Virus genome (UHGV): UHGV-1377823 | Direction: 5' to 3' (one strand) | Origin: a virus | Length of the DNA stretch: 44,002 nucleotides | Part shown: positions 559-44,002 of the stretch, one piece after another | Layout: every line of letters begins with the position of its first letter | Position numbering within the stretch: position 1 is the stretch's first letter | The notes under the pieces: generated by a model | The model's database searches: none | Told to the model about the DNA's origin: nothing | The model's input: the letters and a program-made list of their open reading frames with translations, nothing else | Program-made: the position numbers and the translations under genes

Positions 559-633
559 TGCTTGACATTGCAGCAGAACTCTGAAACTGCTGCAATAGAA
601 GTAACACGTATAGGACAACACAGGAGAATCCCC

Positions 634-5770: not shown

Positions 5771-6065
5771 CAGTGTATGTGCTACATGTTTAGGTACTGG
5801 GTGCGAATACTGCAACCCCATCGCTGGCCGCGCAAAAGCAGCAGCCCCAGACCCAGTGAACCAGCCGCAGCACTACGCCTCCGGCGAGATTGAGTGCATC
5901 GACGCTATCCGGGCTAGTATGACCAAGGAAGCGTTCTGCGGTTACTTGAAGGGTTGTGCACAGAAATACTTATGGCGCTACGAGAAGAAGATTAACCCTG
6001 TAGAGGATATCAAGAAGGCTCGCTGGTACTCTGAGCGCTTGATTAAGGAGCTTGAGGATGCCTAA
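5763..6065 (+). CDS. conserved phage protein (DUF3310-like, YLWR motif)
   Basis: GCAQKYLWRYEKK...EDIKKARWYSERLI resembles the widespread DUF3310 phage family. The family assignment is from memory, not from a search. Confidence 0.55.
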   Translation: MDNSVCATCLGTGCEYCNPIAGRAKAAAPDPVNQPQHYASGEIECIDAIRASMTKEAFCGYLKGCAQKYLWRYEKKINPVEDIKKARWYSERLIKELEDA

Positions 6066-6377: not shown

Positions 6378-6584
6378 ATGACAGGTAAATGCGGAGCAGA
6401 TTGTACTAACCGTTGCAGCATCGGGGCTTGCCCTAAAGCGGAGCCTAAGGATGAGTTTGATGGATTCATCCTGGACTTCGATGAAGAAGCTGTAGCAAAG
6501 CGTAATGCTGAGCGTGAGCAGGCTCAAACAGAGAGCGCCTACAAGCTCAGCGATGACGGTACGTGCGACGGTTGTACTATTTAG
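6378..6584 (+). CDS. hypothetical Cys-rich small protein
   Basis: ATG 6378 with an AAAGGTG SD. N-terminal CGADCTNRCSIGACP and C-terminal CDGCT cysteine clusters; acidic middle. Confidence 0.45.
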   Translation: MTGKCGADCTNRCSIGACPKAEPKDEFDGFILDFDEEAVAKRNAEREQAQTESAYKLSDDGTCDGCTI

Positions 6585-6637
6585 TAGCACTTAGGATTAA
6601 CCTCAGAAACGTCACGATTAACGTAGAGGGCAGCGAA

Positions 6638-9082
6638 TTGAAATTAGAAACCTTAGAAGAACGCACAGAACGTCAGCTCCAGCTTGAGCAGCAGTACCGT
6701 ACACGCAGCTTAGAGCGCAGCAAGAGCCTGGTGCAGAAAGCTCTGGACTCTGGTAGCCTCAGCACCCTGCCACCAGTGCAGCGCATGATTGCTGCCGCGT
6801 ACGACACTGTATGCGCAGGCATCAACAGCACTAAGCAGGAGAAGACTGCTGGTGTAGGCGCTAAGTACCGCGCGTTCCTGCGCTTAATTCCTACGGATGT
6901 ACTGGCTGTGCTGGCGCTGACAAAGTGCTTCGATTCGCTATTCTCTAACGTAGGCACTAACAGTGCCAGCTCGGCACAGGCTGTACTGTCCGGCTTAGGC
7001 CGTCAGGTTCAGGCTGAGCTACTGGCTGTGCAGCTTCAGGCTGTAGCCCCAGCGTACATGAACCGGGTGCATGAGTACCTGAAGGAGCGCAACACCACCA
7101 GCCCATCGCACATCCTCAAGACCCTGCGTGCTTCTGCTGAGAACGTGCATTACCAGCACGAGCCTTGGTCGAACTCGCAGTGCATCTCCGTGGGTAAGCT
7201 CTTGATGCAGGCAGTGTGGGATACAGGGCTGTTCGTATGGAGCAAGCGCGACCGCACGCAGTTGCAGTACCTAACCCCAGCTCCGGCGCTGGAGCAGGTC
7301 CTGTCTGAGCTGGTAGAGCACGCTGATACAGTGCAGCTGAAGCCACCGATGCTTATCCCGCCGCAGCCGCACGATACTATGTTCTCTGGCGGATACCTTA
7401 CGGACATTGATAGACGCGGTACTTACAGCAACTCCCAGATTCAGCGCAGTATGAAGCGCGAAGTAGCTGAGGCGTTCAAGCAAGCACCGGAGCTTCGGAG
7501 CGCTCTGAACCGTGCTCAGGAGGTTCCTTACCGCATTAACAAGACCATGCTGAGGCTGGTGCAGCAGGCCCGCGCCCTTGGCGTAAGCACAGGTATGCCC
7601 AGCAGCAACCCAGCACCTAAACCAGAGTGGCGCTTGGATGGTGTACCGAAGGAAGAGTACACCGAGCGCGAGCTTGAGGAGTTCCAGGAGTGGAAAATGC
7701 ATATGCGCCAGTGGTACGCGGATGAGCGTACTCGCGTAGGGCAGCTGCGTGCTCTGGTTACAACCGTAAGTATGTGCGAGGAGTTCAAAGATGAAACAGA
7801 GCTGTACTTCCCGACTTGTGTGGATTGGCGATACCGCCTGTACTTCAAGTCCAGCCTGCACCCCCAAGGTTCTGATTTGCAGAAAGCTCTGCTTGAATTC
7901 GGTCGCGGCAAGCCGCTTGGGGAGCGTGGGCTGTTCTGGCTTAAGGTGCATGTCGCCACTTGCTTTGGTTATGACAAAGCCTTATTCGAAGACCGTGCAG
8001 CTTGGGCTGATGCGAACTATGACGCAATTAGACGCCTGGTATCTGACCCATTTAATTCGGACGCTTTTAAACAGGCGGATAGCCCGTGGTGCTTCCTGGC
8101 AGCAGCAATCGACCTTGTTAATGCACTTAGCTCTGTGGAGCCGACAGAGTATGTATCGCACGTACCGGTCGCTATGGACGCTACAAACTCAGGCTCTCAA
8201 CATTACAGCGCAATGCTCCGGGACCCAATCGGCGGGCGATTAACGAACCTGTTCTGGGAAGGTAACGCAGAGAAAGCGGATATGTACATGGACGTGAAGG
8301 AGCGTACGGACTCTAAGGTAATCATGGACCTCACTGACCCAGAGCACGTAGTGCAGGCTACGTACTGGAGAGAGAACCAGATTACTCGGAGTATGACCAA
8401 GCGCCCCTGCATGACCTACGTGTACTCCGCTACTGTACGTAGCTGCTCTGAGTACATCCTTCTGGGTGCTAAGGACGAGGGGTATGAACCCACTGAGGAG
8501 TACAGCCTGTTTAAGCTCGCGGGGTACTTAGCTCCGCGTATGCGTGCTGCTGTAGAAGAGGCTAACCCTGCGGCTGCTGAGGCTATGCGCTTTGCTCAGC
8601 AGATTACGGGACGTGTACCGACTAAGCGGCACTTGCAGTGGAAGACTCCGCTGGGGGGTCTGGTAATTAACCGATACACGGAGTCAGATGAATGCCGGGT
8701 TAAAGTTCAGAGTATGAACCTGACGTACCTGCTCAGTTACAACCGTAACTATGAGCAGAACAATCGCCGTAAGGCTAAGTCTGGTATAGCTCCGAACTTC
8801 GTGCATTCACTGGATAGTACGCACCTGATGATGGTACTGAACGCCTTCGACGGTGATATCCTACCTATCCACGACTCTCTGGCTACGCATGCCTGTGATG
8901 TCGATGCAATGCACAAAGTAATCCGGGAGCAGTTCCTGAAGCTGTACACCGAGCACGACCCACTGCAAACGCTGGCTGACGCAGCGGTGGAGTGTGGTGC
9001 TGACCTGGAAGGTTTAGATATGCCTGAGAAAGGTACTCTGGACTTGACGCAAGTACTTGAATCACCTTTCTTTTTCTGCTAG
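6638..9082 (+). CDS. single-subunit DNA-dependent RNA polymerase (T7 RNAP family)
   Basis: Alignable to T7 RNAP along its length, for example C-terminal PEKGTLDLTQVLESPFFFC against T7 PAKGNLNLRDILESDFAFA, and motif DSLATHACD. The likely start is TTG 6638 with a GAGGG SD 7 nt upstream. The track's 6563 start overlaps the upstream gene. Confidence 0.93.
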   Translation: MKLETLEERTERQLQLEQQYRTRSLERSKSLVQKALDSGSLSTLPPVQRMIAAAYDTVCAGINSTKQEKTAGVGAKYRAFLRLIPTDVLAVLALTKCFDSLFSNVGTNSASSAQAVLSGLGRQVQAELLAVQLQAVAPAYMNRVHEYLKERNTTSPSHILKTLRASAENVHYQHEPWSNSQCISVGKLLMQAVWDTGLFVWSKRDRTQLQYLTPAPALEQVLSELVEHADTVQLKPPMLIPPQPHDTMFSGGYLTDIDRRGTYSNSQIQRSMKREVAEAFKQAPELRSALNRAQEVPYRINKTMLRLVQQARALGVSTGMPSSNPAPKPEWRLDGVPKEEYTERELEEFQEWKMHMRQWYADERTRVGQLRALVTTVSMCEEFKDETELYFPTCVDWRYRLYFKSSLHPQGSDLQKALLEFGRGKPLGERGLFWLKVHVATCFGYDKALFEDRAAWADANYDAIRRLVSDPFNSDAFKQADSPWCFLAAAIDLVNALSSVEPTEYVSHVPVAMDATNSGSQHYSAMLRDPIGGRLTNLFWEGNAEKADMYMDVKERTDSKVIMDLTDPEHVVQATYWRENQITRSMTKRPCMTYVYSATVRSCSEYILLGAKDEGYEPTEEYSLFKLAGYLAPRMRAAVEEANPAAAEAMRFAQQITGRVPTKRHLQWKTPLGGLVINRYTESDECRVKVQSMNLTYLLSYNRNYEQNNRRKAKSGIAPNFVHSLDSTHLMMVLNAFDGDILPIHDSLATHACDVDAMHKVIREQFLKLYTEHDPLQTLADAAVECGADLEGLDMPEKGTLDLTQVLESPFFFC

Positions 9083-9469
9083 CAGTTTCATATGAAAGGG
9101 TTTTAGCGGTAGATGATTGACGTATAGAAGAAGACAGATAAGGCGTAAAGCCAATAGGTACTAAGATACCTCAAATAATAAACAGTCTCAGGTAAGCAGT
9201 AAGGGCATAAGATAGCGGTTGGGCTAGCGCAACGCAGTGTATCCAGTTACGGGGATGCTGCGCCATGCTACGCCTGTATCCGCTTGGGGAACCCTAAGCA
9301 AGCGCCTGGGTAGTCACCTTCTTCCGTCTTGCCTGAGTATTGCTAGCAACAAGGTGCAGTGGTAACTACACGGCCTTGTATGCGGTGCTCAGCTAAGATG
9401 CGCTAAGACCCTTTCGAACAAAACATAAACACTAGAGGTTGCACGTATAGAACAAGGGGCAAGCAAAGC

Positions 9470-9895
9470 ATGAGCCAAACAAAGAAAACACTGTATAATA
9501 CTAGACTCTATAACTGGAGTAACTCTAGTGATTATATAATTAGTTTAGCTAAGGAGTTCCATATCTATGGTATAGGTATGAAACTAGGTATGCCCGAGGA
9601 AGAGCACTTCCAGAAGGTAGTGCAGGAACTACAGGGTGATTCTGTATTAGTTGTATTCAGCGAGGATGTACCTGTAGGTGTAGTTTCTCTTGACCCTATA
9701 CTGTTCCAGAACAGCCACTACCCGGGTAAGGCTATGCTTACGGGATTTATAGTGGTCGAGCCTGGCTACACCAAAGCTGGGGCTGTGCTAATGCGCGACG
9801 CTAAACGCATCGCTAAAGAGAACGGTGCGGATTGGCTTATCGTGACTCGCGCTGTAAACGACACGGATTATCTTCAAAGAGGGTGGGAGTTATAA
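9470..9895 (+). CDS. GNAT-like N-acetyltransferase (putative), moron in AT-rich island
   Basis: The C-terminal half fits the GNAT motif A / beta4-alpha3 pattern (VVEPGYTKAGAVLMRDAKRIAKENGADWLIVTRAVNDTD...RGWEL). The gene and its upstream region are markedly AT-rich relative to the ~54% GC genome. Confidence 0.45.
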   Translation: MSQTKKTLYNTRLYNWSNSSDYIISLAKEFHIYGIGMKLGMPEEEHFQKVVQELQGDSVLVVFSEDVPVGVVSLDPILFQNSHYPGKAMLTGFIVVEPGYTKAGAVLMRDAKRIAKENGADWLIVTRAVNDTDYLQRGWEL

Positions 9896-10155
9896 TGGGA
9901 AGCCTCAAAAAAGGTTTAAGCTCTATCACTGACATGGTAGGGTTAACGGATACAGCATCTCTGGAAGCACAGCAGAAGCAGTATGAGGAGCAGCAGAAGC
10001 AGCTTGCAGCGCAAGCACAGTTAGACGCGGATACCTCAGCAGAGAATATCAACACAGTAGACTCAGGCGGTGCAGCGCAGGCTTCGGCTAGCGATATCAC
10101 TGCATCACAGAAAAAGCGTCGTGCGGGGGCGGTATCCACAGCGCTCGGCATTTAA
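9895..10155 (+). CDS. small virion-associated protein (T7 gp6.7-like position)
   Basis: ATG 9895 overlaps the GNAT stop (TAATG). 86 aa, Q/A-rich with a basic C-terminus KKRRAGAVSTALGI. Sits immediately upstream of portal. Confidence 0.5.
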   Translation: MGSLKKGLSSITDMVGLTDTASLEAQQKQYEEQQKQLAAQAQLDADTSAENINTVDSGGAAQASASDITASQKKRRAGAVSTALGI

Positions 10156-10164
10156 GGAGCTAAG

Positions 10165-11733
10165 ATGCGTGGAACCAAAGAACCTTTAGCAGGGCTGTTC
10201 ACGAAGTTACAGGACAGCTCTACTCTTACCGCAGCAGAACAGTTCGCGAAATGGTCGCTCCCGACAGTATTCACCAAGGACTTGTCCGGTATGGACGGTA
10301 AGCGCTCGGCGCTGCACCGGGACTACCAGAGCCTCGGAGCTATCCTGATTAACACCGCCAGTACCAAGGTGGTTAAATCGCTGTTCCCTCAAGGAGCACC
10401 GTTCTTCCGCTTCGTAGACAGTGATGAGCTGGCTGGCGTAGTTGGTGAGCTTGGTATCCAGGGGGAAGTACCAAGTGTACAGGCAGAGATTGAGCTGGCT
10501 GCGTCGGCACAAGTCTACAAGGACGAAGAGTACGCTGCGAAGCTGCACGCTACGAAGCTGCTGATGGTTACAGGGAATGCCCTGGAGTACAGGGATAAGC
10601 AGCGTCAGCGCTCTCATATCTACAGCATCCGAGACTATGCGGTTAAGCGTAATGGCTCTGGCGATGTAATGCTGATCGTCCTAAAGGAGCGTATCTGCGT
10701 TGGTGATTTACCTGATGAGTACCGCATCCAGTACGACAACAAAGCTGACTATGAGGACCTGGAACTCTATACGGGTGTATGCCGTGAGGTGCGGGAAGGT
10801 GGTGCAGTAGTCTACAAGGTGTACCAGGAGGTTGATAATAAACCTGTTGGGGAACCTAGTTACTATCCGGAGAAGCAGTGTCCTTACACAGTGCTGGTCT
10901 GGAACCGCGTTAACTCTGAGCACTACGGGCGTGGTCTGGTTGAGGACTATGCTGGGGAGTTCGCTAAGCTCTCTGAGCTGAGTAAAGCCCTGACGCTGTA
11001 TGAAGTCGAAGCTATGCGCTTTGTGAACATGTCCAACTCTGCATCCGGTGTAGACATTGACGCGTTCAACGATGCTGCTGTAGGCGACATCATCCAGACC
11101 AATGCCCCAGCCGGTACTACTGGGCCTGGTATATGGGCCTACGAAGGCGGTGTCTACCAGAAGATTCAGGTCATGCAGGCTGAGATTGCCAGCATTGAGC
11201 AGCGTCTTGCCAGAGCGTTCATGTACGGAGGCAACACCAGGGATGCAGAGCGTGTCACGGCGTACGAGATTCGTCAGAATGCTCAGGAGGCACAGGAGGC
11301 TCTGGGGGATGCGTACAGTCAGCTAAGCAGCGTATGGCTTACTAAGCTGGCGTACCTGTACTGCCTGGAGCTGTACCCGCAGATGCAGCCGCTGTTGGAC
11401 CTGCAAGCTATGACGCTGAACGTTGTAGTAGGTACAGCAGCTCTGGCTAAAGCAGCTCAGAATGACCGCTTACTGGAAGCTACACAGTCCCTGCAGTTGA
11501 TTGCACCAGTGCTCTCGCAGCTTACTAAGCGCACTAACATGGATGCCTTGATTGATACGGTGTTTGATAGCTTCGGCATCAACAGCAGCAAGTTCTTCTA
11601 CACGGAAGAGCAGTTGAAGCAATTGCAGGAGCAAGAGGATACACGAGCAGCTCAAGCAGCGCAGCAGCAGCAACAGGCGCTCCAGGCAGCAGACCCTAAC
11701 CAAGCGGCTCAGCAACTAGGCTTAATCGCATAA
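10165..11733 (+). CDS. head-tail connector (portal) protein, T7 gp8-like
   Basis: 522 aa with an AAGGAG SD. Size and position are right for portal ahead of scaffold and capsid. Confidence 0.88.
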   Translation: MRGTKEPLAGLFTKLQDSSTLTAAEQFAKWSLPTVFTKDLSGMDGKRSALHRDYQSLGAILINTASTKVVKSLFPQGAPFFRFVDSDELAGVVGELGIQGEVPSVQAEIELAASAQVYKDEEYAAKLHATKLLMVTGNALEYRDKQRQRSHIYSIRDYAVKRNGSGDVMLIVLKERICVGDLPDEYRIQYDNKADYEDLELYTGVCREVREGGAVVYKVYQEVDNKPVGEPSYYPEKQCPYTVLVWNRVNSEHYGRGLVEDYAGEFAKLSELSKALTLYEVEAMRFVNMSNSASGVDIDAFNDAAVGDIIQTNAPAGTTGPGIWAYEGGVYQKIQVMQAEIASIEQRLARAFMYGGNTRDAERVTAYEIRQNAQEAQEALGDAYSQLSSVWLTKLAYLYCLELYPQMQPLLDLQAMTLNVVVGTAALAKAAQNDRLLEATQSLQLIAPVLSQLTKRTNMDALIDTVFDSFGINSSKFFYTEEQLKQLQEQEDTRAAQAAQQQQQALQAADPNQAAQQLGLIA

Positions 11734-13850: not shown

Positions 13851-13857
13851 ACCCGGG

Positions 13858-13896
13858 CCCCGTGCTTCCTTAACTGGAGGTGCGGGGCTTTTTTCG
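13858..13896 (+). terminator. rho-independent terminator after capsid operon
   Basis: GCCCCGTGC ... GTGCGGGGC forms a 9-bp stem (with 2 G.U pairs) followed by TTTTTT. Its position is analogous to T7 Tphi downstream of gene 10. Confidence 0.6.
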
Positions 13897-14146
13897 TTTC
13901 TGGGCCTCGGAGACTACAACAGGTAAGAGCATTGACTACACCAGATAAATCCTCGGATGTAATGGTAAAACCATGCAGTGCTCTTTCCGTTGTGGTGCAT
14001 ACGCAACGTTGTTAAATGGTTCAGGGGTGCAATCTTGTTCAAAGAGGCAAGACACTGTTGGTCCCTGGTAATAGGTCCCCCGGAATGCGGGGAGTAGTAA
14101 AGTAACTTCCAGCCACAACCCTTTTAATCAAACAGGAGATGCCCTA

Positions 14147-25938: not shown

Positions 25939-26238
25939 ATGGCAAAGGCGGCAACTAAAAGCCGCCTCAGCGAACTTCACAGGATGTTTACTGAGGCGCT
26001 AATTAGCGAACTCAAGCAGGCGGGGGAAGAGGAGATTCCTTTACCCGCTGCGGATAAGTCTGTTATCGCCAAGTTCCTCAAGGATAACGAAATCACTGCT
26101 GATGCAGACTCTACGGAGATGCAGGAGCTGCGGGACGAGTTCGAGGATGAGCTGGCAGCTAAGCGTAAAGCACGGGCTGAGGAACTGCTGGCTAAGGCTG
26201 GGGCAGACCCAGAGGATGATTTAGCAGGGATTATTTAA
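25939..26238 (+). CDS. terminase small subunit (DNA maturase A, gp18-like)
   Basis: 99 aa, acidic and helical, immediately upstream of the large terminase subunit. Confidence 0.7.
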   Translation: MAKAATKSRLSELHRMFTEALISELKQAGEEEIPLPAADKSVIAKFLKDNEITADADSTEMQELRDEFEDELAAKRKARAEELLAKAGADPEDDLAGII

Positions 26239-31864: not shown

Positions 31865-32198
31865 TCAGGGATAGCCTGGGGCCTCTACGAGGCTCTGGGA
31901 GCTTCTCTAAGCGCTTCTACCGGATAGCCTATAGGATTGCATAGGGATAGCCCTGTGATAGCCTTAGCGTGGCTCTGGTTGGCTCTGAGTGATAGCTCTG
32001 AGTAGCTCTGTGTGGTAGCGGAGGTGGGCGCAGGCTTACCTCTTTTCGTCCTCTATGTGTGCCTAGAGATAGCTTAGGGATAGCTGTAGAATCCTCACGT
32101 ACAGGCCGGAGATAGCTATTGGATAGCTCCAGTGTTAGCCGGTAATGGGTATAGCTAGAAGCTAGAGGTTGCATGATAAGGTATGCTGACTGTATGCA

Positions 32199-32227
32199 TT
32201 GACTAGGTATGACCATACTGCTACTAT
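32199..32227 (+). promoter_or_regulatory. candidate sigma70 promoter TTGACT-17-TACTAT
   Basis: -35 TTGACT at 32199-32204, a 17-nt spacer, and -10 TACTAT at 32222-32227, in an AT-rich region 170 nt upstream of the 32397 gene. Confidence 0.4.
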
Positions 32228-32396
32228 TGGTCATAGCTACTGTATATACTGAGTGCATACTGAGTATATAGCTATATAGAGTTGGTCACAGCTAATGGTA
32301 GTTGATGGGGTGTAACCATAGGTCACACCTCTGTAAGTACAGGGAATATAAGGAGTTGTTTGATTGAGTATAAATCAGTTAATAGAGGGTTTAAGT

Positions 32397-33095
32397 ATGA
32401 GTGTTCACAGCTACAGTACAGGTTTCGGTACACAGTCTGTTACGCTGAATGTACAGAGCCTGGTGGATACACTGGATAAATCCGGTTCGAGGCAGCAGCT
32501 GGTACAAACAGCGCTTAAGGCTGCCAGGGCACTGAGTAATGAACTGTACGGTGAAAGGAATATACTGAAGTGCATGCAGCTTGTGCTGGCTGCTATAGAT
32601 ACAGAGCGGTATCGTTCCGGTACAGAGGTTATCGATGCTGTACTGGATGCTGATACCGCGAAGTGGTTCAAAGCGTACCGGGTTACTCCGGCTCTGCAAG
32701 CACTGTTACCTGCTGGAGTATCAGCAGGGCGTTGTAAGGCTGCGGTTAACGCAGTGTTTAAGCTACAGGGCGGTACAGTAGCTGGTAGTAAGGCTGGTAA
32801 CGTTGTAGCTGCTGCGGATGGCTCTTACAGCGTTGATACAGTAGACCTCTGCGTAGAGTTATATGACCGAGGGTTAAGTGCCGAGGATATTCGGTTCATG
32901 CTACAGCATTATGGCTACAGTCTCACCGAGTGGGAGGTACTGGAGATACTTAATCGTGAGTGCGGCTACCTGGAGAAGTTTATCTATATAGGTAACGGAG
33001 AGGTAGTGCACGCTCAGTGCAGTAGCCTGGAAGGTCTGGAGCAGTGGCAGGACGTGGTGGTAGCTGCTGAGCAGCGTAAATGGCGGGGGATGTAA
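32397..33095 (+). CDS. hypothetical protein (232 aa)
   Basis: ATG with an AGAGGG SD 7 nt upstream. The track's 32364 start uses an alternative codon. No recognisable domain. Confidence 0.6.
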   Translation: MSVHSYSTGFGTQSVTLNVQSLVDTLDKSGSRQQLVQTALKAARALSNELYGERNILKCMQLVLAAIDTERYRSGTEVIDAVLDADTAKWFKAYRVTPALQALLPAGVSAGRCKAAVNAVFKLQGGTVAGSKAGNVVAAADGSYSVDTVDLCVELYDRGLSAEDIRFMLQHYGYSLTEWEVLEILNRECGYLEKFIYIGNGEVVHAQCSSLEGLEQWQDVVVAAEQRKWRGM

Positions 33096-41811: not shown

Positions 41812-44002
41812 TGCATATAGATTTAGAGGTTCAAAATTATGAGTACTACGGCTCAAAAGCAAGCCCGTACTGCCCGGATAACTACGTTGTGGAGTCAGCG
41901 TGGCGGGTTGATACAACGCAAGCAGACGGAACAGTCACTGTTGGAACAACTCAGTCGGTGCGGTACAACTCAAGAGCGGAATTCCTTCGCGGAAACTCTA
42001 GAGTGGGCGGTGGTACATGGTTCAATATCCCAGAAGACTGCTGGCTTATTGTCGCACACAATGCTGCGTATGAAATCAGCTGGTTCCTCAAGTACCAGCG
42101 CCAGCAGTTCGAAGCATTCCTTAAGCGCGGCGGTCGAGTGTTCTGTACAATGCATGGACACTACATCGCCTCAGACTTCCAGGACCTGTATCCATCGCTG
42201 GATGAGACGGCTCCTAAGTATGGTGGTACGCACAAAGTAGACGGGGTGAAGCTGCTGTGGGAGCAGGGGGTGCTAACTTCAGACATCGACCCGATGCTGC
42301 TGCATGACTACCTGGTGAACGGGGATATCCCGAACACGGCCCTGTGCTTCTACGGGGAGTGCGCTGTCTTCGCAGAGCGCGGGCAGATGCAAATGGTCTG
42401 GGAGCGTATGGACGCTATGCTGGCCTGGGCGTACTGTGAATTTTATGGCTTGTTTGTTAACATGCCTGTAGCGCAGCGGAACCAAGCTGAGCAGGAGCAG
42501 CGCATTCAGGAGCTGCGTCAGCAGTTGCAGCAGTACCTGCCGAAGGACCTGCCGAAGGAGTTCGAGTTCAACTACGGCAGCAACTATCATATGTCTGCGC
42601 TGGTCTATGGCGGACCTATCCGTTATGACATGAAGGTTCCGTATGACCCACCTAAGTTCGTGAAGGTGGAAGTACAGGACGGCGTGTACAAGGCAGGGAA
42701 GAACAAGGGCCTGCCTAAGTTCATCAAGGTTGATTCGGATGTACCGCTGCTGAAGTGGGGCAAGGGCATCTACAACTTCCCCGGCATCGTGAGTATCCAG
42801 GAGCTACCTCAGCACTTACAAGAGAAGTACGGTGAGCGCGGGGAGTTCAGAGGTGCTCAAACACTTCCGGATGGTTCCCCGGTGTATAGCACCAGCGGCG
42901 ACGCAATGAACGGCCTGGCTGCGCAGGGCTTCGAGTTCGCTAAGTTAGTGAACGAGCTGGCTGCGTTGGAGAAAGATACGGGAACCTATTATCTTAGAAC
43001 GGAGTACAACAAAGATGGCTCAGTTAAGAAAGTGTCCGGGATGCTCCAGTACGTTATCCCTGAGTCCGCAGATGGAAGCGGCATTATCCATCATAGACTC
43101 AACACTTGCAGCACAGTCACAGGACGCCTGTCGGCTTCAAACCCTAATCTACAGAACCTGCCCAGGGACGGAACTAGCCGAGTTAAACAGATGTTTACAT
43201 CTCGTTTTGGAGAGCAAGGCCGCATTACGGAAATCGACTACTCAGCTCTGGAAGTCGTTATGTCCTGTGTGCACACCGGGGACTTGAAGCTGCTGGAGCT
43301 ACTCCAGAAAGACACGGACATGCACTGCTATCGCCTAGCGTTCAAGGAGGGTAAGAGCTACGAGGAGATGTACCAGCTCTGCCACGACGCAAGCGGCCCG
43401 GATTACAAGTACTGGAAGCAGCAGCGTACAGACATCAAGCCTCCGAGCTTCGCAGCGCAGTACGGCGCTACGGCTAAGGGGATTGCGTTTGCTACAGGCT
43501 GTACCGTGGAGTACGCTCAGAGCTTCCTGGATAATGAGGCTAAGCTGTTCCCTACAACCATCGGCTTCCGTGACGTAGTACGCGCCGAGGTTGAGCGTAC
43601 TGGGATGCTGGAACCTGTGCTGCGTGAGCAGTGCGAGGACGGGCAGTGGCGTTTATATCGCCGAGGGTACTGGACCAGCCCAGCGGGTACACGCTACAGC
43701 TTCCGTCAGAAGCTGCAATGGCAAGTACCAGAGGGAGGCGGTCGTAAGGTTCAGGTCATGGACTACAAGGGGACCGAGATTGCGAACTACTGGAACCAAG
43801 GGGAGGCGTTCTTCCTTATGGCTGTGGCAGCGGGGCAGGTTCTGCGCAGACTCATCCAGAAGGACTGGTACGGCGGTAAGGTTGTGCTGGTAACGAACGT
43901 ACACGACGCGCTGTATCTGGATAGCGCGGACGAGGAGACGGCGGTACTAGCAGGTAACTTAGTGAAGGATGCTATGGAAGAAGCCCCGCGCCGTATAGCA
44001 GC
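41811..44002 (+). CDS. DNA polymerase (family A, T7 gp5-like), 3'-truncated at window end
   Basis: Open frame from ATG 41811 to the window end with no stop, which is why it is absent from the ORF track. Carries exo motifs MHIDLEV and LIVAHNAAYE (T7: DIEAN, LIVFHNGHKYD), polymerase motif KQQRTDIKPPSFAAQYG, and motif C VHDALY. Confidence 0.9.
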   Translation, partial: MHIDLEVQNYEYYGSKASPYCPDNYVVESAWRVDTTQADGTVTVGTTQSVRYNSRAEFLRGNSRVGGGTWFNIPEDCWLIVAHNAAYEISWFLKYQRQQFEAFLKRGGRVFCTMHGHYIASDFQDLYPSLDETAPKYGGTHKVDGVKLLWEQGVLTSDIDPMLLHDYLVNGDIPNTALCFYGECAVFAERGQMQMVWERMDAMLAWAYCEFYGLFVNMPVAQRNQAEQEQRIQELRQQLQQYLPKDLPKEFEFNYGSNYHMSALVYGGPIRYDMKVPYDPPKFVKVEVQDGVYKAGKNKGLPKFIKVDSDVPLLKWGKGIYNFPGIVSIQELPQHLQEKYGERGEFRGAQTLPDGSPVYSTSGDAMNGLAAQGFEFAKLVNELAALEKDTGTYYLRTEYNKDGSVKKVSGMLQYVIPESADGSGIIHHRLNTCSTVTGRLSASNPNLQNLPRDGTSRVKQMFTSRFGEQGRITEIDYSALEVVMSCVHTGDLKLLELLQKDTDMHCYRLAFKEGKSYEEMYQLCHDASGPDYKYWKQQRTDIKPPSFAAQYGATAKGIAFATGCTVEYAQSFLDNEAKLFPTTIGFRDVVRAEVERTGMLEPVLREQCEDGQWRLYRRGYWTSPAGTRYSFRQKLQWQVPEGGGRKVQVMDYKGTEIANYWNQGEAFFLMAVAAGQVLRRLIQKDWYGGKVVLVTNVHDALYLDSADEETAVLAGNLVKDAMEEAPRRIA

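Follow-up and report, generated by a model that had tools for sequence, protein, structure and literature searches.

The window analysed here, a stretch of 44,002 nucleotides, is a permuted complete Koutsourovirus genome with an identity of about 91% to Enterobacter phage phiKDA1. Its layout is like that of phiKMV and KP34 and not like that of T7, with the gene for the single-subunit RNA polymerase (RNAP) closing the middle genes. The RNAP is 97% identical to cluster P0037; its start codon is uncertain, and the RNAPs of relatives are 813 to 816 aa long. The RNAP open reading frame ends at position 9082 and is followed by a gap of 387 nt (9083-9469) and an open reading frame for 141 aa (9470-9895), exactly where the initial annotation had placed them. 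The next product, of 86 aa, is homologous to gp29 of LUZ19 (37% identity, E = 2e-8). The features of the locus are collected in Table 1.

Table 1. Features at and around the junction of the RNAP gene and the late genes (positions of the window)
Feature	Position	Strand	Remarks
Third promoter-motif copy	596-613	+	7-bp hairpin before it; followed by RBS and TTG start at 625
Single-subunit RNAP gene	6563-9082	+	Last in DNA-metabolism module; Pfam RNA_pol E = 1e-90; PHROG 414
Closing stem, 5' arm (predicted)	9093-9108	+	GAAAGGGTTTTAGCG; pairs with 9401-9416; inverted repeat I1; only in read-through transcripts
P2, upstream promoter-motif copy (candidate)	9110-9127	+	Putative +1 at G9127; direct repeat D1
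RNA domain 1 (predicted)	9127-9324	+	Long irregular hairpin closed by GAAGAAG/CUUCUUC; two small 5' hairpins; GC-rich apex
RNA hairpin 2 (predicted)	9325-9400	+	18 + 7 + 4 bp (29 bp); stacks directly on closing stem
Closing stem, 3' arm (predicted)	9401-9416	+	CGCTAAGACCCTTTC; interphage sequence conservation ends here
Hypervariable spacer, cassette to P3	9417-9432	+	Several unrelated alleles in alignments A4 and A8
P3, late promoter-motif copy (candidate)	9433-9450	+	Putative +1 at G9450; conserved block upstream of GNAT gene
AT-rich tract downstream of P3	9451-9600	+	Leader and first ~44 GNAT codons; 31-36% GC, the genome's lowest
RBS	9454-9459	+	AAGGGG; after P3
141-aa GNAT-fold protein gene	9470-9895	+	First gene of late operon; syntenic counterpart of LUZ19 Rac (gp28)
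86-aa virion structural protein gene	9895-10155	+	Start overlaps GNAT stop; PHROG 3112 E = 1.5e-22
Fourth promoter-motif copy	32087-32104	+	ACGTACAG variant; early non-coding region, inside GATAGC array; equals phiKDA1 nt 358-375

The region had been described as an AT-rich island in a genome of about 54% GC. The genome GC content was computed as 51.8% instead. The island itself was real at the scale of 9083-9895, with 46.1% GC (0.4th percentile of all 813-nt windows), and the first 100 nt of the 141-aa open reading frame, at 31% GC (0.05th percentile), were essentially the lowest 100-nt window of the genome. The intergenic region had also been called much more AT-rich than the rest, which applied to parts of it but not to the whole. 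The complete gap had 47.8% GC (11th percentile) and was heterogeneous, with 37.7% in 9083-9212, 56.4% in 9216-9410, above the genome mean, and 42% in 9411-9469. The genome minimum, about 36%, was found at 9411-9600.

A candidate promoter motif behind the RNAP gene

The genome has four copies of the motif TAGA-N6-ACGTATAG, and phiKDA1 has it at the same four places. Three alleles of the N6 segment were found. A search with a 16-mer promoter and 3 mismatches returned a single site, and a shorter core was required to recover the copies; exact k-mer repeat mining gave only noise from coding repeats. The KP34-type promoter motif was absent in a motif search, and neither sigma-70 promoters nor intrinsic terminators were found on the + strand in 8800-10300.

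P3 is present in nearly all relatives, with one to three changes in Entb_48, L006 and SDFMU_Pec. It is equivalent in position and sequence to the EM1 ORF45 promoter TCAGAAGTCACACTATAA (2933-2950 in L009), and in position to the strong promoter of KP34 behind its RNAP gene. The EM1 RNAP promoter has been biochemically validated and lies between the genes for the RNAP and an N-acetyltransferase; the EM1 RNAP shares 71% identity with that of the window. KP34 has a further promoter at nt 475-490. As in the window, EM1, KP34 and LUZ19 have few phage-RNAP promoters per genome, the strongest of which lies right behind the RNAP gene and before the acetyltransferase or late genes. One or two promoters lie directly behind the RNAP gene in KP34 and LUZ19, and in LUZ19 they are two in tandem, 197 nt apart. 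The motif of the window matches the EM1 promoter in part and is unrelated to the motifs of KP34 and LUZ19. We regard TAGA-N6-ACGTATAG as a candidate promoter for Koutsourovirus RNAPs, with P2 and P3 assigned by homology. The three "phiKDA1 promoters" that were tried with the EM1 RNAP, in published attempts that failed, are other sequences.

A variable slot and its non-coding cassette

The junction between the RNAP gene and the late operon is a hot spot for variable cargo. The gap measures only 56 to 61 nt in the close relatives SDFMU_Pec, EhYP, L009, L013 and L014. The junction holds an HNH endonuclease in Entb_48 and L006, and also in Peggy, a DUF3850/ASCH protein in KKP 3828 and a NinX protein in L008, and the non-coding element was found at 15 loci. 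When L027 was compared with KKP 3828, the difference came down to a single inserted unit, with a promoter copy on either side. The cassette of the window (9110-9432) is one unit of about 323 nt between two copies of the promoter motif. Both its presence/absence pattern and its promoter-repeat boundaries were shown by the comparison of relatives, several of which, although close, lack P2 and the 290-nt core. Presence or absence among close relatives, by which a moron is recognised, was therefore found for the non-coding cassette: the variable "moron" slot is the intergenic region, not the GNAT open reading frame.

In all databases searched, the cassette was confined to one locus in one genus. 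A host or plasmid source of the GC-rich core was sought by blastn against 5,426 E. coli genomes and 72,556 plasmids and by a pattern search of 185,579 GTDB genomes, and neither gave a match. Among 50,697 GenBank phages and IMG/VR, only phiKDA1 matched; the element is unannotated in its deposited record. One JGI metagenome contig also matched the cassette, and additional copies came from Logan/ENA contigs.

The core of the cassette (9127-9414) showed a mean pairwise difference of 3.5% between phages, as against 24% at third codon positions in the 3' end of the RNAP gene and 13% in those of the GNAT gene. Its evolutionary rate equalled that of codon positions 1 and 2, and its conservation was about 4 to 7 times stronger than that of neighbouring synonymous sites. 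The constraint covered nearly every nucleotide of the core, loops included. A pseudogene or small protein was considered and rejected, as six-frame translation of the cassette gave no long frame and none resembling the HNH, DUF3850 or NinX cargo. The sole open reading frame (42 aa) is not credible as coding, for it lacks an RBS and its approximately 14 substitutions are nonsynonymous throughout. With the 4,227 models of Rfam, no match reached the gathering score in the whole window and nothing relevant appeared at E <= 10 in 9050-9520; ARAGORN found no tRNA or tmRNA, and antisense matches in the phage genome were at chance level.

Both strands fold well thermodynamically (9083-9428, minimum free energy fold, z = -4.97; - strand, z = -4.4), and the strand was therefore chosen by counting G-U against A-C pairs. 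Of the 103 pairs of the structure, which was predicted from the same sequences used to judge the pairing, 99% were canonical. Variable pairs kept canonical numbered 14 of 23 on the + strand versus 4 on the - strand. Among the pairing cells, 173 were G-U and 5 were A-C, which indicates selection on the + strand RNA. At the level of the aligned sequences, the base-pairing pattern thus points to an RNA of the + strand only. The covariation score was reached by 3 of 500 shuffles. Only two compensatory pairs were found (columns 102/141 and 108/135 of alignment A6, both in domain 1), a count reached by 110 of 500 shuffles; covariation is thin because the divergence among the copies is low, at most 5%.

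The predicted fold of the core is a three-way junction. In alignment A8, 14 pairs of the closing stem were retained in 12 of 12 copies; three pairs were altered in one or two of the sequences, and a single cell was broken. The left arm is missing from L027, which keeps the core; the closing stem can therefore be dispensed with. Hairpin 2 had a predicted folding energy of -34.2 kcal/mol (z = -3.9), and none of 200 shuffles was as stable; it has five polymorphic G-U/A-U pairs, with pairing kept in all.

In T7, the primary replication origin lies in the intergenic region between genes 1 and 1.1, and the RNase III site there is named R1.1. [quoted passage not shown] The T7 hairpin is about 60 nt long and the promoters are 75 nt apart, whereas here a three-way junction of about 290 nt lies in the 323 nt between the promoters. 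Set against the R1.1-type criterion for RNase III, about two turns of double-stranded RNA, hairpin 2 offers an 18-bp helix interrupted by one bulge, and the closing stem of 14 to 16 bp stacks on the 7-bp helix. Unlike the T7 region, the cassette is optional among close relatives. The RNAP gene belongs to the early genes in T7, whereas here it is the last of the middle genes, and the two regions have no alignable homology, just three shared 9- to 11-mers.

The 141-aa GNAT-fold protein

The product of the 141-aa open reading frame had been called GNAT-like. This was borne out at the level of the fold by an AF2 model (pLDDT 90.4, pTM 0.83), for which the top 50 Foldseek matches in the PDB were without exception GNATs or proteins annotated as acetyltransferases (TM about 0.6, E down to 4e-7). 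The support from the sequence was weak. The score with Pfam PF00583 (Acetyltransf_1) was 18.2 bits, below the cutoff of 20.7. Of 25 homologues, no more than 4 matched Acetyltransf_1 at E <= 0.1, and a profile search of PDB sequences gave no match. The acetyl-CoA loop site (Q/R-x-x-G-x-G/A after strand 4) reads PGYTKAGAV in the window; most homologues have a degenerate loop (PYHPKAVA), and A103 is the sole invariant residue. According to the predicted model, the 141-aa protein has a GNAT fold.

The atypical base composition noted for this gene was confirmed. It has the lowest GC content of 38 open reading frames (44.6%, z = -2.8), because of its first 132 nt (34% GC, GC3 36%). The AT-rich 5' end (31-36% GC) was found in 13 of 13 relatives checked, including ones with 66 to 70% protein identity; the GC3 of the AT tract was 0.30 to 0.36, and 0.46 in L009/EM1. 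The initial annotation had taken the composition as a sign of a horizontally acquired moron. However, every relative examined has the gene at this position, with its odd composition conserved too, and therefore it is not a moron. Its homologues have 52 to 94% identity and form 36 clusters (PHROG 5167, E = 1e-47).

In LUZ19, the GNAT acetyltransferase Rac (gp28) causes the alpha subunit of the host RNAP to be cleaved when transcription passes to the phage RNAP (PMC7552054). Like Rac, the protein of the window is a small protein with a predicted GNAT fold, encoded downstream of the phage RNAP by a gene that has an overlap with that of the first small virion protein; after the latter comes the portal gene. 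A comparison of the two by hhalign was marginal (probability 46.6%, E = 2e-4, 15% identity over 88 columns), and Foldseek matched models of Pseudomonas phiKMV-like GNATs at E of about 1e-6. Unlike LUZ19, which infects Pseudomonas, the phage studied here has an Enterobacter host. Among the best viral structure matches were also models of the T7 gp7-like "host range / host specificity protein A" (E = 2e-7, TM 0.65-0.69), and the T7 gene order 7, 7.3 and 8 is mirrored here by the genes for the GNAT, the 86-aa protein and the portal. A sequence-profile link of the GNAT to T7 gp7 and of the 86-aa protein to gp7.3 was tried and was not significant. By analogy of position and fold, the 141-aa gene is the counterpart of the LUZ19 Rac gene. 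A role as a modifier of host proteins, proposed earlier, is plausible by this analogy, since the open reading frame sits exactly at the Rac position.

Possible nature of the cassette

In our estimation, with a probability of roughly 60%, the gap is a promoter-bounded accessory cassette at a hot spot, its cargo being a non-coding RNA of about 290 nt, and the gene downstream is a Rac-position GNAT. T4-type phages have promoter-flanked mobile cassettes (PeSL), in which recombination between the repeated promoter motifs at the borders shuffles the accessory cargo; these cassettes carry early sigma-70 promoters with a stem-loop together with protein genes. Unlike in PeSL cassettes, the repeats here are candidate promoters of a single-subunit RNAP and the cargo is RNA. 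In the literature, we found no report of a strongly constrained RNA cargo in a lytic Autographiviridae genome.

Such a cassette would move or be lost through homologous recombination between the promoter copies. The RNA would be made both from P2, with +1 at 9127, and by read-through from the RNAP gene. In the read-through transcripts, the closing stem would stack on hairpin 2 and hold P2 in a loop, and the long helices would be cut by the host RNase III, as at T7 R1.1 or in the excision of rRNA from long-range stems. Cleavage would free a stable structured RNA and separate the RNAP message from the late message, and the 141-aa gene would be transcribed from P3, with +1 at 9450, as the first late gene. 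The released RNA may stabilise mRNA or control dosage in cis, or it may act in trans. Besides the thin covariation, the good folding of the - strand and the missing left arm of L027, further points weigh against this reading. The high conservation could come in part from recent spread by recombination rather than from constraint; T7-type promoters do not usually vary in their specificity region, as N6 does here; and without a terminator after the element, transcripts from P2 may be merely a long leader of the late mRNA.

It is possible, though rather unlikely, that the cassette is an accessory RNA gene in its own right: a self-contained, promoter-equipped and recombination-mobile gene of about 290 nt, whose RNA, made from P2 or excised in an rRNA-like manner via the long-range stem, would target host or defence components in trans, as other cargo of phage accessory hot spots does, and would do more than organise the phage mRNAs. 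The element has its own promoter copy, it is present or absent in a slot that otherwise holds accessory proteins, and the constraint over nearly every nucleotide exceeds the need of a mere RNase III helix. Against a trans-acting RNA, no target was found among the antisense matches to the phage genome, no Rfam family and no terminator were detected, and the element occupies a single locus in one genus only. We consider it distinctly unlikely that the region is a primary replication origin of the T7 type, as the initial annotation had proposed, where DNA synthesis would be primed by transcripts that run from tandem phage promoters into an AT tract that melts easily. Promoters assigned by homology do follow the RNAP gene and precede AT-rich DNA (38% GC after P2, 31-36% after P3), in the feature order of T7 (phi1.1A, R1.1 and phi1.1B, then an AT-rich tract). 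GC is low at all three positions of the first 44 GNAT codons and remains so in 13 relatives, which suggests a constraint at the nucleotide level, but AT-richness after a strong promoter and start codon may also serve promoter clearance or translation initiation. Moreover, only P3 and the AT tract are universal among the parts of the promoters and cassette, the core has a high GC content, and the imbalance of G-U over A-C in it agrees with selection on RNA and not on DNA. No iterons were found in the region, whereas an iteron-like GATAGC array near 32 kb, close to the left end of the genome, competes as an origin candidate; the phiKMV/KP34-like layout also speaks against a T7-type origin. No inflection of the skew was seen in the genome, and none is expected in such genomes. 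The origin and RNA explanations are not mutually exclusive.

Selfish DNA or debris, either a MITE-like element or a decayed protein-coding insertion with no function for the phage, is very improbable. The insertion is indeed bracketed by an inverted repeat of 15 nt, of which 14 are complementary, and the site attracts homing endonuclease genes. However, the terminal inverted repeats come with no target-site duplication, unlike those of a MITE, and in L027 the element has moved through promoter recombination in the absence of the left repeat. One locus only was found, with no copies in the bacterial genomes, plasmids and other phages searched. The evolutionary rate is that of nonsynonymous and not of neutral sites, and the lack of a long or cargo-like frame argues against a decayed gene.

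Accessory hot spots of phages have been mined for proteins that act against defence or in host takeover, and non-coding cargo has rarely been described in this group. The cassette offers a simple system for its study: the phage has 44 kb and a known type of RNAP, and variants that carry or lack the cassette occur in nature. As a promoter prediction, TAGA-N6-ACGTATAG is concrete and distinct from the phiKDA1 candidates that failed. The GNAT gene moves from a "moron" or toxin to a conserved gene at the Rac position, and by this analogy, acetyltransferase-mediated host shutoff may extend beyond the phages of Pseudomonas.

The junction behind the RNAP gene

A blastn search with 8500-10500 matched phiKDA1, an Enterobacter phage (Autographiviridae, Slopekvirinae, Koutsourovirus), over the full query at 91% identity, and several other Koutsourovirus genomes were also matched. 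The window is a circular permutation of the whole ~44-kb genome, and its ends appear to lie in the DNA-polymerase region, which would account for the apparent ORF-free stretches (42241-44002) in the mechanical ORF list. All ORFs are on the + strand. The layout differs from that of T7 and matches that of phiKMV/KP34, with RNAP as the final gene of the middle region, directly next to the structural genes. Near 31.7-33.8 kb are the early region and the area presumed to hold the terminal repeats.

Features of the window around the RNAP/GNAT junction and elsewhere
Feature	Coordinates	Strand	Remark
RNAP gene	6563-9082	+	after DNA-metabolism genes
Gap			387 nt between RNAP gene and 141-aa ORF
141-aa ORF (GNAT gene)	9470-9895	+	then 86-aa virion protein, portal, scaffold
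Promoter motif	596-613	+	
Promoter motif, P2	9110-9127	+	predicted +1 at 9127
Promoter motif, P3	9433-9450	+	predicted +1 at 9450
Promoter motif, early	32087-32104	+	
Left arm	9094-9108		GAAAGGGTTTTAGCG
Right arm	9401-9415		CGCTAAGACCCTTTC
Long irregular hairpin	9127-9324	+	predicted
Hairpin 2	9325-9400	+	predicted
AT-rich tract	9451-9600		
GATAGC(C/T) array	31870-32127		258 nt
Second AT-rich minimum	32143-32442		39% GC; coincides with early/presumed terminal-repeat area
Stretch without long ORF	13851-14146		296 nt, behind small gene downstream of major capsid gene; phiKDA1 25956-26184, its counterpart, is a gap too

Alignment with relatives revealed five states between the RNAP stop codon and the conserved block TAGAGGTTGCACGTATAGAACAAGGGGCAAG..ATG. 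The junction was empty (a gap of 56-61 nt) in SDFMU_Pec, EhYP, EM1 (L009) and the related loci L013 and L014; it held a 215-aa HNH endonuclease in Entb_48 and the relative L006, an 82-aa DUF3850/ASCH protein in KKP 3828, a 134-aa NinX protein in the relative L008, and ~330 nt of non-coding DNA in the window and phiKDA1. Cronobacter phage Peggy has an HNH gene at the junction as well. Judged from this alignment, the junction is a cargo hot spot whose variable part is the intergenic region and not the GNAT gene. In L027 (573-1200; ENA ERZ15185071), the element stands in tandem with the DUF3850 gene known from KKP 3828; a DUF3850/ASCH (RNA-binding-type) gene next to an RNA cassette indicates that the slot can stack cargo. 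Compared with KKP 3828, L027 has exactly one extra unit (core, spacer and promoter), placed after TATAGA, and by this comparison the cassette is mobile through recombination at the promoter.

Direct repeats of TAGA-N6-ACGTATAG, spaced 323 nt (P2 and P3), bound the non-coding insert. The motif has four copies in the genome, at the same four places in phiKDA1, and is most likely a phage RNAP promoter, as predicted from the following comparisons. EM1, with an RNAP that shares 71% identity with the phiKDA1 enzyme, has a sole strongly active, biochemically validated promoter, TCAGAAGTCACACTATAA, between the RNAP and N-acetyltransferase genes (PMC9596486). It can be aligned with P3 (AGA-RGT..CAC.TATAR, then A.AAGGGG and a start codon). 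In KP34 the strong promoter sits 5 nt downstream of RNAP, and the genome carries three copies of it, one of them near nt 475, and one weak promoter (PMC6834552). LUZ19 has four promoters, two in tandem directly behind RNAP (PMC10914365), which we located in the sequence 197 nt apart; T7 phi1.1A and phi1.1B are 75 nt apart behind gene 1. From the alignment with T7 and EM1, +1 would be the G of TATAG.

Three N6 alleles (GGTTGC, AACCAC and TGATTG) were found, in all combinations at P2/P3 across different phages. At P3, each allele has a complementary 4-6-mer 6-17 nt upstream (AACC..GGTT, GGTT..AACC, AATC..GATT; 6 bp in KKP 3828), a rule seen in the window (9417-9442) and in the equivalent regions of the relatives L001, L004, L005, L008, L011-L013 and L017-L028, and one that does not hold at P2. 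Such pairing would place TAGA in a hairpin loop, and the complements may be a small covarying hairpin or co-inherited haplotypes. Around the first motif copy (556-640), the stop of the upstream ORF is followed by a 7-bp GC hairpin (GCAGCAG..CTGCTGC), the motif, the RBS AGGAG and a TTG start codon (625); the ORF called mechanically at 562 is probably overlong.

The GNAT gene and the origin question

The initial annotation had described 9083-9895, with correct coordinates, as an AT-rich island carrying a GNAT-like moron and a candidate T7-like origin. Genome GC is 51.8%. The island stood at the scale of the whole region (46.1% GC, 0.4th percentile of same-size windows) but not for the gap itself, where GC is just slightly reduced (47.8%, 11th percentile) and uneven: 37.7% in 9083-9212, 56.4% in 9216-9410, and a return to AT-rich sequence from 9411 onwards, extending into the ORF. 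The atypical composition of the ORF was borne out: it has the lowest GC among 38 ORFs (z = -2.8), an effect of the first 132 nt, and its first 100 nt form the genome minimum (31%).

The GNAT-like fold was likewise upheld. The AF2 model (pLDDT 90.4) had only GNATs or annotated acetyltransferases as its top 50 PDB matches; the protein was sub-threshold against Pfam, and most homologues have a degenerate acetyl-CoA loop. BFVD matches included the LIMElight, KP-Rio and PP90 homologues (TM 0.79-0.88), Pseudomonas phiKMV-like GNATs and T7-gp7-like 'host specificity protein A' models. The moron reading was not supported, since the gene is present in every genome of the junction comparison and the variable slot is the intergenic region. 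The gene also belongs to PHROG 5167, and its homologues, 52-94% identical, make up 36 protein clusters, many on 40-45-kb contigs. In LUZ19, the GNAT Rac (gp28) is encoded downstream of the phage RNAP, overlaps the first structural gene and causes cleavage of host RNAP alpha (PMC7552054). The LUZ19 order of RNAP, gp27, Rac, gp29 (virion) and portal matches that of the window, and the 86-aa protein is 37% identical to gp29; the profile comparison of Rac with the 141-aa protein was marginal (probability 47%, E = 2e-4). The GNAT gene is a conserved late-operon leader gene and most likely a Rac-like host modifier, rather than a moron of recent origin or a toxin that acetylates tRNAs. The GNAT model is matched (E = 2e-7) by structures predicted for T7-gp7-like 'host range / host specificity protein A' proteins, and the order of T7 genes 7 / 7.3 / 8 (L033) parallels the GNAT region; the T7 gp7 sequence profile gave no significant match to the 141-aa protein. 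Judged from the structural matches and the gene order, T7 gene 7 may belong to this GNAT-fold family as a diverged member.

As for the proposed origin, P3 and the AT-rich tract form the universal module, which resembles the T7 origin architecture, and the P2/core half is dispensable in nature. The tract has low GC at all codon positions, conserved in 13 relatives, which suggests nucleotide-level constraint; the tract could just as well assist promoter clearance or the start of translation at the first late gene. Flanking the early promoter copy, the non-coding early region has nine same-strand copies of GATAGC(C/T), including three pairs spaced 11 nt. This iteron-like array could be a candidate origin or a regulator-binding site, and as an origin candidate it is at least as good as P3 with the AT-rich tract.

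Constraint, structure and strand of the non-coding core

The element, recovered via cluster members of the GNAT protein, was found in 15 loci representing 11 distinct sequences; all searches placed it in a single genus and at a single locus, and the phiKDA1 record leaves it unannotated. The 288-nt core is 95.8-100% identical to that of the window, against 85-96% for the flanking sequences (RNAP 3' end, GNAT gene, 86-aa gene, portal 5' end). Nine phages compared pairwise differed on average by 3.5% in the core, by 24% (RNAP 3' end) and 13% (GNAT gene) at third codon positions and by 2-3% at positions 1-2, so the core evolves like nonsynonymous sites. Conservation starts at the RNAP stop and ends abruptly at 9415-9416, followed by a hypervariable spacer. 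No reading frame in the core is credible as a gene: the longest ORF, of 42 aa, begins with GTG, lacks an RBS and remains open across copies, with its ~14 substitutions all nonsynonymous. Neither Rfam nor ARAGORN gave a match for the element. L027 lacks the left arm and its core is still 97% identical, which argues that promoter and core are the essential unit. As read from these alignments, the cargo is a constrained non-coding RNA.

The RNA from +1 was predicted to form a long irregular hairpin closed by GAAGAAG/CUUCUUC, followed by hairpin 2 (-34 kcal/mol, z = -3.9). A 15-nt inverted repeat surrounds P2 and the core; with both arms, 9083-9428 was predicted to fold into a three-way junction (-125 kcal/mol, z = -4.97) whose closing stem, retained in 12/12 copies having the left arm, abuts hairpin 2. 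The alignment covers 103 pairs, which are 99% canonical. Changes on one side that preserve pairing, mostly G-U to A-U, occur at thirteen pairs; at one further pair both sides change, always with pairing preserved. Two pairs are compensatory, G-C becoming A-U in four sequences and C-G becoming U-A in one, with A-C intermediates. The covariation score was reached by 3/500 shuffles and the compensatory-pair count by 110/500, evidence limited by low divergence and by a structure derived from the very sequences compared.

The - strand folds well too (z = -4.4, -113 kcal/mol). Helices are canonical in 99.0% on the + strand versus 82.7% on the - strand, and 14/23 variable pairs stay canonical on the former versus 4 on the latter. 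There are 173 G-U cells versus 5 A-C cells, an asymmetry that neither DNA-level nor - strand constraint would give; the + strand holds all genes and promoter copies. The element is optional, promoter-bounded, strongly constrained and structured, and belongs to the + strand.

Proposed working of the RNA

The RNA would be made from P2 and would also be part of transcripts reading through from the RNAP gene. The + strand showed no terminator after the element, so discrete RNA ends would need processing. RNase III could plausibly act on two helices, the 18-bp one in hairpin 2 and the closing stem, which stacks on that hairpin. Transcription from P2 and read-through would yield roughly the same ~280-320-nt RNA. 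T7 carries its R1.1 RNase III hairpin at the corresponding position, flanked by phi1.1A and phi1.1B. Three words, ATGATTGAC, ACCTTCTTCCG and TAAGACCCTT, are common to the T7 gene 1/1.1 intergenic region (L029; nt 5886-5954) and the window (9113-9121, 9316-9326 and 9404-9413), more than in mononucleotide shuffles (P about 0.001-0.01); the two regions have no alignable homology. Constraint at nearly every position exceeds the needs of a cleavage helix, which makes a binding partner or a specific tertiary fold likely for the core RNA. Structured RNAs that lie between tandem phage promoters downstream of RNAP are already known in kind, as are phage 5'UTR-derived ncRNAs; new here are the size of the element, its accessory and promoter-mobilised nature, and the degree of constraint.
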